Under the pieces are notes generated by a model. The model searched no databases and had not been told where the DNA came from. It was given only the letters and a program-made list of their open reading frames with translations. A DNA stretch of 64,000 nucleotides from a virus (taxonomy: Duplodnaviria; Caudoviricetes), in the IMG/VR virus record IMGVR_UViG_3300030330_005600, positions 1 to 64,000 of that record. The stretch is one strand, 5' to 3'. Shown here one piece after another: positions 13,487 through 13,885 of the stretch. Numbering within the stretch: the stretch's first letter is position 1; the number at the start of each line of letters is the position of its first letter. A program made the translations under genes and the position numbers.

Positions 13487-13749
13487 TGGTGTCGGAATGG
13501 GGGTCCAGCTTTTATTTAACGTAAGGACCGTCCCTACGGCAGACTTGTTAACTCAGTCCCACTGAATGTCTTTTTTTATTTGTGACAAAACAAAAGGTAT
13601 GTTTTACAACCTCAAGGTAGGGAAATTCCCTGTTTAAACCTTACCTATGGTTGCCCCCTTTATAAATTTTGGGTAAAGGGAGAATAAAACCTCTGATCTA
13701 CGTTTCTAGTTTTAAGTTAGAGTTTGCAGAAACCATTCGTTTTACACCA
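13487..13749 (-). ncRNA. Putative structured ncRNA 2 (about 263 nt), Y-RNA-like terminal helix
   Basis: 5' UGGUGUAAAACGAAUGGUUUCUGCAAA pairs with 3' CCAUUCCGACACCA; internal hairpins cucccuuua/uaaaggggg, gcaacc/gguugu, aggga/ucccu, auucagu/acugagu, cguaggga/uccuuacg; no ORF. Confidence 0.7.
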
Positions 13750-13759
13750 GTTTAAAAAA

Positions 13760-13885
13760 TAGTAGCGGAATTGTATGTGTTTGTTTTTTTCTCCCCCTCA
13801 TTACTGAAGGGTGGTGGGTCAAACTCCCACTTTCTCGATCTTGGTTTGAGTTTTTTAAATTTGCCGAAACCATTCCTCTATACCA
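13760..13885 (-). ncRNA. Putative structured ncRNA 1 (about 126 nt), Y-RNA-like terminal helix
   Basis: 5' UGGUAUAGAGGAAUGGUUUCGGCAAA pairs with 3' CAAUUCCGCUACUA; hairpins GUGGG-aguuuga-CCCAC and CCCUUCA-GUAA-UGAGGGG (GNRA loop). Confidence 0.7.

Follow-up and report, generated by a model that had tools for sequence, protein, structure and literature searches.

Particles of the Ro60 protein and its Y RNAs are a classic element of RNA surveillance, and a second branch, unrelated in sequence and common in large phages, would widen this system considerably. Ro60 (Rsr) combines a TROVE with a vWA domain, and its RNA partners include the YrlA and YrlB RNAs of bacteria and mycobacteriophages (Chen et al. 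2014, PMC4201824; Rfam RF02553). The accepted view of Y RNAs is modular, with a handle joined to an effector module, so that the concept as such is not novel. A working precedent in a phage is the Ro60 of Thermus phage phiLo, which binds two neighbouring Y-like RNAs, Yrl1 and Yrl2, and also the PNPase of the host (PMC12135203; PDB 9l5y, 9kop). In the Felixounavirus Bas63 the protein gp130 has been reported as Ro60-like; its gene lies upstream of a tRNA array, it counters the Ppl defence, and the authors guessed that some of the annotated tRNAs are Y RNAs of gp130, naming none of them (10.1101/2024.10.10.617714). As far as gp130 can be likened to the Felixounavirus gene considered below by its position upstream of a tRNA array, its action against Ppl is the only functional datum for the DUF2828 protein family. 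A comparable RNA build is found in eukaryotes: the dictyostelid Class I RNAs (RF01414) are 42-65 nt long and have their own promoter; a short stem joins their two ends, a motif of 11 nt with CAGCAA at its end directly follows the 5′ strand, the remaining sequence varies, and their known binder is an RRM protein (PMC7919456). In the literature that we searched no RNA partner was named for DUF2828 proteins, and the RNA family described here was not found there.

In this study we describe two structured RNAs, RNA1 and RNA2, behind a phage gene for a DUF2828 protein. From comparison of sequences and predicted structures we consider it probable that both are partners of this Ro60-like protein, as Y RNAs are of Ro60, and that their common handle marks a widespread, uncatalogued RNA family. 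The window, i.e. the whole stretch of 64,000 nucleotides that we analysed, is the first 64 kb of an AT-rich virus record of 129 kb (28% GC) from marine samples. On its minus strand a promoter-like site is followed by the Ro60-like gene, a GUUCUUUGACAU box, RNA1, a spacer, RNA2, a terminator and a thioredoxin gene (Table 1). RNA1 has the orientation of the Ro60-like gene and starts (~13889) 13 nt past the stop codon of the latter, and both RNAs have a GC content of 39% compared with 28% for the window. The mechanical ORF of the gene reaches a TTG at 15398; the ATG at 15353 is the likelier start and fits the relatives better. The promoter-like site is a candidate only, the region as a whole being not enriched over shuffled sequences in the promoter scan. 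The GUUCUUUGACAU box resembles the rrn boxA antitermination box (GCUCUUUAACAA) and could aid readthrough of the untranslated RNAs by RNA polymerase. The sequence-only reading of this locus had proposed that only about ten A/U-rich nucleotides separate the two units and that both are processed from one precursor. The spacer is indeed 10 nt long, and a single precursor is plausible, given one promoter-like site, one terminator and one RNA contig joining the gene end with both RNAs. An ORF of 43 codons across RNA1 (13742-13873) was rejected because of indel differences among the relatives. Just upstream of the Ro60-like gene, at 15474-15624 (minus strand), tRNA-Asp and tRNA-Glu have a strong promoter-like site of their own (15665-15637) and echo the tRNA-array setting of the system in other phages. 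Apart from tRNAs, the neighbouring genes in the relatives are not conserved; a CCA-adding-type nucleotidyltransferase occurs in one case and the rest are unrelated.

Table 1. Features of the locus, listed in the direction of transcription (positions refer to the window).
Feature	Position	Strand	Basis or remarks
Sigma-70-like promoter candidate, TTGACT-17-TATATT	15398..15426	(-)	Ahead of Ro60-like gene; consensus scan, 10/12 matches
Ro60-like gene, DUF2828 + DUF7788/vWA	13902..15353	(-)	483 codons
GUUCUUUGACAU box over stop codon of Ro60-like gene	13891..13902	(-)	GTTCTTTRA conserved in relatives with 57-99% protein identity
RNA1, putative handle RNA with small cargo of two hairpins	~13757..13889	(-)	Fold; R2 model match; Alifold
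RNA1 5′ handle: outer-stem strand, GGAAU, then GGUUUCGGCAAA	13860..13885	(-)	Aligned with the same motif in 17 relatives
RNA1 3′ handle: AAUUCCG and outer-stem strand CUACUAU, one bulged C	13759..13772	(-)	Fold and Alifold
A/U-rich spacer, 10 nt, RNA1 to RNA2	13749..13758	(-)	Read from sequence
RNA2, putative handle RNA with structured cargo of ~230 nt	~13486..13751	(-)	Fold; alignments A2 and A7, 13-14 compensatory pairs
RNA2 5′ handle: GGUGU, AAAA, then CGAAUGG-UUU-CUGCAAA	13723..13748	(-)	Invariant in 19 relatives
RNA2 cargo core, three-way junction	13601..13690	(-)	GUUUUA/UAAAAC closing, CCCUUUA/UAAAGGG arm, CAACC/GGUUG arm with nested hairpin
RNA2 3′ handle: CCAUUC-CG-ACACC	13488..13500	(-)	Alignment; outer stem covaries
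Intrinsic terminator closing the unit, 14-pair stem then U run	13446..13479	(-)	Terminator prediction

The protein matches only DUF2828 and DUF7788 in Pfam (E 1.9e-52 and 1.5e-31) and falls into PHROG 850, labelled 'RNA-binding protein'. According to an AlphaFold2 model built from 35 relatives (pLDDT 79.5) it forms a ring of helical repeats, which a MIDAS-bearing vWA domain closes, and this modelled fold matches only Ro60 structures. In a Foldseek search all of the top 13 PDB matches were Ro60 over the full length (510-550 columns, TM 0.5-0.57, E 1e-8 to 1e-4), and the phiLo Ro60 is the best structural match of the model. The MIDAS residues DxSxS..T..D of the vWA domain (D292, S294, S296, T365 and D397) are invariant in the 35 relatives. 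Unlike Ro60, the protein carries no TROVE signature (PF05731) in Pfam and has no sequence-level match to a solved Ro60: phmmer against PDB sequences returned neither a Ro60 nor any other solved structure at E <= 10, and a search of NCBIfam gave nothing useful. Homologues are present in 710 phage records, including Felix O1-like phages (Felixounavirus), KVP40-like phages and phages of Listeria (P100), Staphylococcus, Enterococcus, Campylobacter, Bacillus and Mycobacterium. The Felixounavirus proteins are ~40% identical to the protein of the window, and the Mycobacterium phage homologues are annotated as 'Ro-like RNA binding protein', a Ro60-like label that is independent of the present analysis. 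An Atlas search with the protein found viral DUF2828 clusters only and is uninformative on eukaryotes.

Both RNAs are closed by pairing of their own 5′ and 3′ ends. Their shared sequences are GAAUGG-UUU-CNGCAAA in the 5′ part and AUUCCG in the 3′ part, and the loop of both opens with GGUUUCNGCAAA and closes with AUUCCG. In RNA1 the outer stem pairs UGGUAUAG (13878-13885) with CUAcUAU (13759-13765), and the inner stem is GGAAU/AUUCC. The corresponding stems of RNA2 are GGUGU (13744-13748) with ACACC (13488-13492) and GAAUGG/CCAUUC. The helices that had been read from the letters are present in the minimum free energy (MFE) folds: RNA1 holds the hairpin GUGGG-AGUUUGA-CCCAC with its 7-nt loop (13814-13830) and a second, GUAA-capped hairpin (13794-13811), and RNA2 has a multi-helix interior made of a three-way junction, including the nested CAACC/GGUUG multiloop, and three further hairpins, with the CGUAGGGA/UCCUUACG stem at 13520-13538. 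The cargo core of RNA2 adjoins an invariant GUAAAACAUACCU. Single-sequence folding gave -30.3 kcal/mol (z -2.48) for RNA1 and -67 kcal/mol (z -1.78) for RNA2; these z-scores are modest, and the argument therefore relies on the relatives. Aligned locally, the two interiors scored 18 against 16.5 ± 2.1 for shuffled sequences, hence they are without similarity to each other, as the sequence-only reading had it. An Rfam search of 13300-14000 found no family match even at E <= 10, only chance hits, ARAGORN and Rfam detected no tRNA at the site of either RNA, and TTCRA, GTTC and T or D arms are absent from both.

The comparison with relatives supports conserved structures in both RNAs. For RNA2, RNAalifold predicted 40 pairs from 19 sequences, 14 of them with compensatory changes. 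Pairs in the cargo core show exchanges from A-U to G-C and from C-G to U-A, and the outer stem occurs in the relatives as GGUGU/ACACC, GAUGU/ACAUC, AAUGU/ACAUU or GAUAU/AUAUC. The RNA2 cargo is kept even in relatives whose proteins are only 57-60% identical. A 21-mer taken from this cargo alone was found in 28 IMG/VR contigs, with the Ro60-like gene just upstream on the same strand in 27 of them and the remaining contig ending at the position of the gene; by this search the RNA2 cargo occurs only behind the Ro60-like gene. A pattern of fixed spacing for the RNA2 core had given no matches owing to indels, and the shorter 21-mer succeeded. In the relatives of RNA1 Alifold recovered both the outer and the inner handle helix. 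The handle and the first hairpin of RNA1 are conserved, and its second half lacks a hairpin of ~30 nt that the relatives retain. The sequence-only reading had allowed for interiors that are not conserved in close relatives; both cargoes proved to be conserved. In GTDB genomes a 20-mer of RNA2 had five matches. Two of these are phage contigs, filed under a Prochlorococcus single-cell genome and a Flavobacteriales MAG, and the other three were discarded as chance matches with neither handle nor gene. Thus, at the level of a 20-mer, there is no sign that the RNA2 cargo copies a host RNA. The first of these phage contigs, 83.8 kb long, belongs to a relative and is deposited in the single-cell genome AG-409-L21 (L118, identical to the contig of L004); another relative (L121) sits in the Flavobacteriales MAG, which conflicts with Prochlorococcus as a hint to the host.

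In the handle module the 5′ strand of the closing stem is followed by a trinucleotide whose middle position is U and then by C-N-G-C-A-A; the interior varies, and a G comes after the 3′ strand of the stem. Among 80 IMG/VR relatives this module is found downstream or upstream of the gene. We built a covariance model (R2) from 11 minimal-unit seeds, extended in one iteration to 53 sequences, with this window and its close kin left out. The best R2 match in the whole 64-kb window is RNA1 (13760-13882, 19.3 bits, E 0.042). In RNA2 the 5′ handle matches R2, the model being unable to bridge the insert of 230 nt; the inner stem of RNA2, a variant of 6 bp in which one C is bulged, is seen together with the CG tail both directly and in the alignment. 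A preceding model of minimal units only (R1) fell short of the window, and a regex scan under a 5-bp rule lacked specificity (320 matches forward, 194 reverse, ~115 in shuffled sequence) and served only for seed picking. Across 58 loci R2 found 102 matches at E <= 0.05 in 45 loci, and all 102 lie on the strand of the gene. In the R2-fitted alignment A5 the 7-bp handle stem is 98.6% paired, a value inflated by model fitting and by the choice of seeds for pairing, and it shows double changes at 6 of 7 pairs, a stem diversity that is not inflated and is plain in the raw hits. Its covariation score is 0.79, compared with 0.05-0.15 when the partners are slid against each other. One could regard the handle as a repeat at the DNA level, for example a protein-binding or recombination site, or as a chance likeness without any function as RNA. 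This might fit the genome record, which contains only two copies, RNA1 and RNA2, and where further R2 matches are due to chance (74266-74332 inside an ORF of 462 aa; 7473-7540 and 44092-44126 without stem or without motif). However, both sides of the stem change with the pairing kept, the strand bias is absolute, the GC content is raised over an AT-rich background and the region is present in RNA libraries; we regard a mere DNA repeat or chance as highly improbable.

The handle recurs beside DUF2828 genes in many phage lineages. R2 found three units ahead of gp165 in Listeria phage P100, one ahead of the gene in Campylobacter phage CPX, four behind the gene and inside a tRNA array in the Felixounavirus LinBro, and one weak unit behind the gene in Mycobacterium phage Lolly9; the units thus occur next to the gene in phages of Listeria, Campylobacter, E. 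coli and Mycobacterium. Of 11 R2 matches in five complete phage genomes (670 kb), 9 are no more than 1.2 kb away from the gene. The module is not covered by any Rfam family. The linkage as such is genomic, and binding of the RNAs by the protein is putative. Could these be stable RNAs that act independently of the DUF2828 protein, either as tRNA-like or structured decoys for host nucleases or as partners of a host RNA-binding protein, and that lie near the gene only through a shared expression region for tRNAs and stable RNAs? Many relatives have units set among the genes of tRNA arrays, in KVP40 a unit is 7 kb from the gene, and the reported binder of the Class I RNAs, which are built alike, is an RRM protein. 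However, the clade of the window has no tRNA array at this site and still carries the RNAs directly behind the gene in all but one of the 28 contigs. Linkage to the gene further extends over phages of at least four bacterial phyla, always on its strand, and in one clade the units adjoin the ribosome-binding site of the gene. We consider it unlikely that the RNAs work apart from the protein.

Within the family the cargo differs in size and kind. We noted A-rich loops of 40 nt, tRNA bodies that lack the acceptor stem, and structured domains with a length of 100-270 nt, and some relatives have arrays of up to five or six units. Examples of the tRNA type are an ARAGORN 'tRNA' inside one unit (L046:2005-2105) and a match to positions 8-63 of the Rfam tRNA inside another (L044:2622-2712). 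The constant handle with variable cargo proposed in the sequence-only reading is thus borne out by recurrence across lineages, by strong covariation and by the range of cargoes. As a large conserved domain that is not a tRNA, RNA2 indicates that the cargo is truly interchangeable. The claim that RNA1 and RNA2 are not tRNA-like YrlA RNAs stands insofar as TTCRA and any Rfam or ARAGORN match are missing; the contrast to Y RNAs is weaker than supposed, since other family members do carry tRNA bodies.

The system resembles Ro60 and YrlA in its ring-plus-vWA fold, in the position of the ncRNA genes next to the protein gene, in the 5′/3′ pairing with an internal loop or bulge, and in the combination of a conserved protein-side module with a variable effector module. 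Two other units of the family match YrlA at E 1.7e-5 and 1.4e-4 (37-40 bits, compared with a gathering score of 69), one of them over the full model. Together with the tRNA cargo and the protein fold, these YrlA-like hits tie the handle family to bacterial Y RNAs through the cargo as well as through the protein. There are clear differences as well. The handle consists of a stem, NUN and CNGCAA, whereas the Ro-binding motif of Y RNAs is GNCGAAN0-1G (PMC4201824); RNA2 contains AACGAAUGG, with an A for the first G, and RNA1 contains GAGGAAUGG, without CGAA. RNA1 and RNA2 lack the T or D arm and any match to RF00019 or RF02553 at E <= 10, and no described Y RNA has a cargo nearly as large as that of RNA2. 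With phiLo the locus shares a phage Ro60-type ring and two neighbouring Y-like RNAs. The phiLo protein, however, is a TROVE Ro60, and the defining feature of its RNAs, upstream of the gene, was a CGAA motif, so that family, motif and position all differ here, with a near-match ACGAAUGG in RNA2 only. The Class I RNAs come close in another respect: all of their five near-invariant positions (T3, C6, C9, A10, A11) are present in GGUUUCGGCAA and GGUUUCUGCAA of our locus, and minimal units elsewhere in the family match RF01414 from end to end with 26 bits, below the gathering score of 41.5. In contrast to Class I RNAs, RNA1 and RNA2 are 133 and 266 nt long, RF01414 has no match in the window, and no link to DUF2828 has been reported for Class I RNAs.

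Parts of the stretch are contained in six marine metatranscriptome runs. In run X15 an identical contig of 555 nt (13486-14040) spans the gene end and both RNAs at a depth of 49, compared with 3-6 for contigs of the gene body, and in run X17 of a different study a contig (13654-13889) has a depth of 138 against 7-28, with one depth figure per contig and DNA possible in RNA libraries, so that strand, ends and level are not provable from the contigs. In two more studies a contig of a relative runs across the gene and the RNAs. The X15 contig ends at 13486, where the 3′ end of RNA2 is predicted, and the X17 contig at 13889, the predicted 5′ end of RNA1. As such the metatranscriptome contigs give a hint of expression and of the RNA ends. 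In four runs 12900-13460 is mostly without contig cover, and the tRNA bins are swamped by tRNAs of other organisms.

The contig that links the gene end with both RNAs, like the location of gene and RNAs on one strand in one transcription unit, would also be expected if the RNAs were parts of a cis-acting 3′ UTR, with the handles as operators by which the protein would regulate stability or translation of its mRNA or as processing or stabilising elements, and not free RNAs acting in trans. Handle-like elements at the 5′ UTR or start codon of the gene in KVP40-like phages point in the same direction. However, relatives carry several units in array, some with tRNA-like cargo, and units lie among tRNA genes or kilobases off. 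Moreover, a cargo of 230 nt with compensatory changes far exceeds the needs of an operator, and the RNA contigs are several-fold deeper than those of the gene body in two studies, which is a weak hint. Altogether, a purely cis-acting role appears rather improbable to us. In the KVP40-like relatives the minimal unit is ~46 nt long and stops 2-10 nt short of the Shine-Dalgarno sequence, and so just ahead of the start codon, of the DUF2828 gene (L043:2908-2953, L056:2909-2954, L061:2909-2953, L064:2907-2954, L055:2908-2956, L058:2853-2897; in KVP40 itself L081:1962-2016). This placement corresponds to the layout of an autoregulatory operator and suggests that the protein may repress its own translation.

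If RNA1 and RNA2 are indeed partners of the Ro60-like protein, a single transcript would run from ~15400 through the gene and both RNAs up to the terminator at 13446 and would probably be trimmed into two stable RNAs. Their paired ends would present a fixed module, made of the stem base, GAAU/AUUC, UUUCNGCAA 5′ of the loop and CCG 3′ of it, and this module may dock on the ring protein. The interior would then be free to differ, with two small hairpins in RNA1 and a three-way-junction domain of 230 nt in RNA2, and might engage other molecules. The likeliest roles of the cargo would be to tether or decoy host factors of RNA handling or defence. The protein fold, the conserved RNA structure, the linkage of gene and RNAs and the presence in RNA libraries are well supported here. 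The handle provides the Ro60-like protein with a testable RNA partner, and a bacterial defence is reportedly overcome by one orthologue of this protein. Owing to the conserved handle the RNAs are easy to find and to mutate, and cultured phages with the system exist. Beyond the cases from tRNA arrays, the window itself contributes a large conserved cargo that is not a tRNA and cover in metatranscriptomes. As a tentative and rather doubtful extension, the DUF2828 ring protein and its handle RNAs might form a general modular RNP platform of phages, in which tRNA, minimal-loop and large-domain cargoes decoy or capture host factors of RNA-directed defence or decay. The same handle in the dictyostelid Class I RNAs would then speak for an ancient RNP that extends to eukaryotes, where the partner that these RNAs still lack would be a DUF2828-type protein.

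Some relatives show further elements near the handle units. In one clade the two handle RNAs are followed by a gene for a CCA-adding-type nucleotidyltransferase (PolyA_pol head), i.e. an RNA-end enzyme (L008:4847-5587, also L012 and L042). In two other loci a small ORF of 87 aa without a Pfam family lies between the DUF2828 gene and two handle units (L030:4490-4753 and L033). In Listeria phage P100 a match to ROOL RNA (L087:941-1492; 86 bits, E 5.6e-16, just below the gathering score of 99.1) is located between tRNA genes, and the three handle units and the DUF2828 gene follow ~0.6 kb and ~1 kb downstream of it, respectively.
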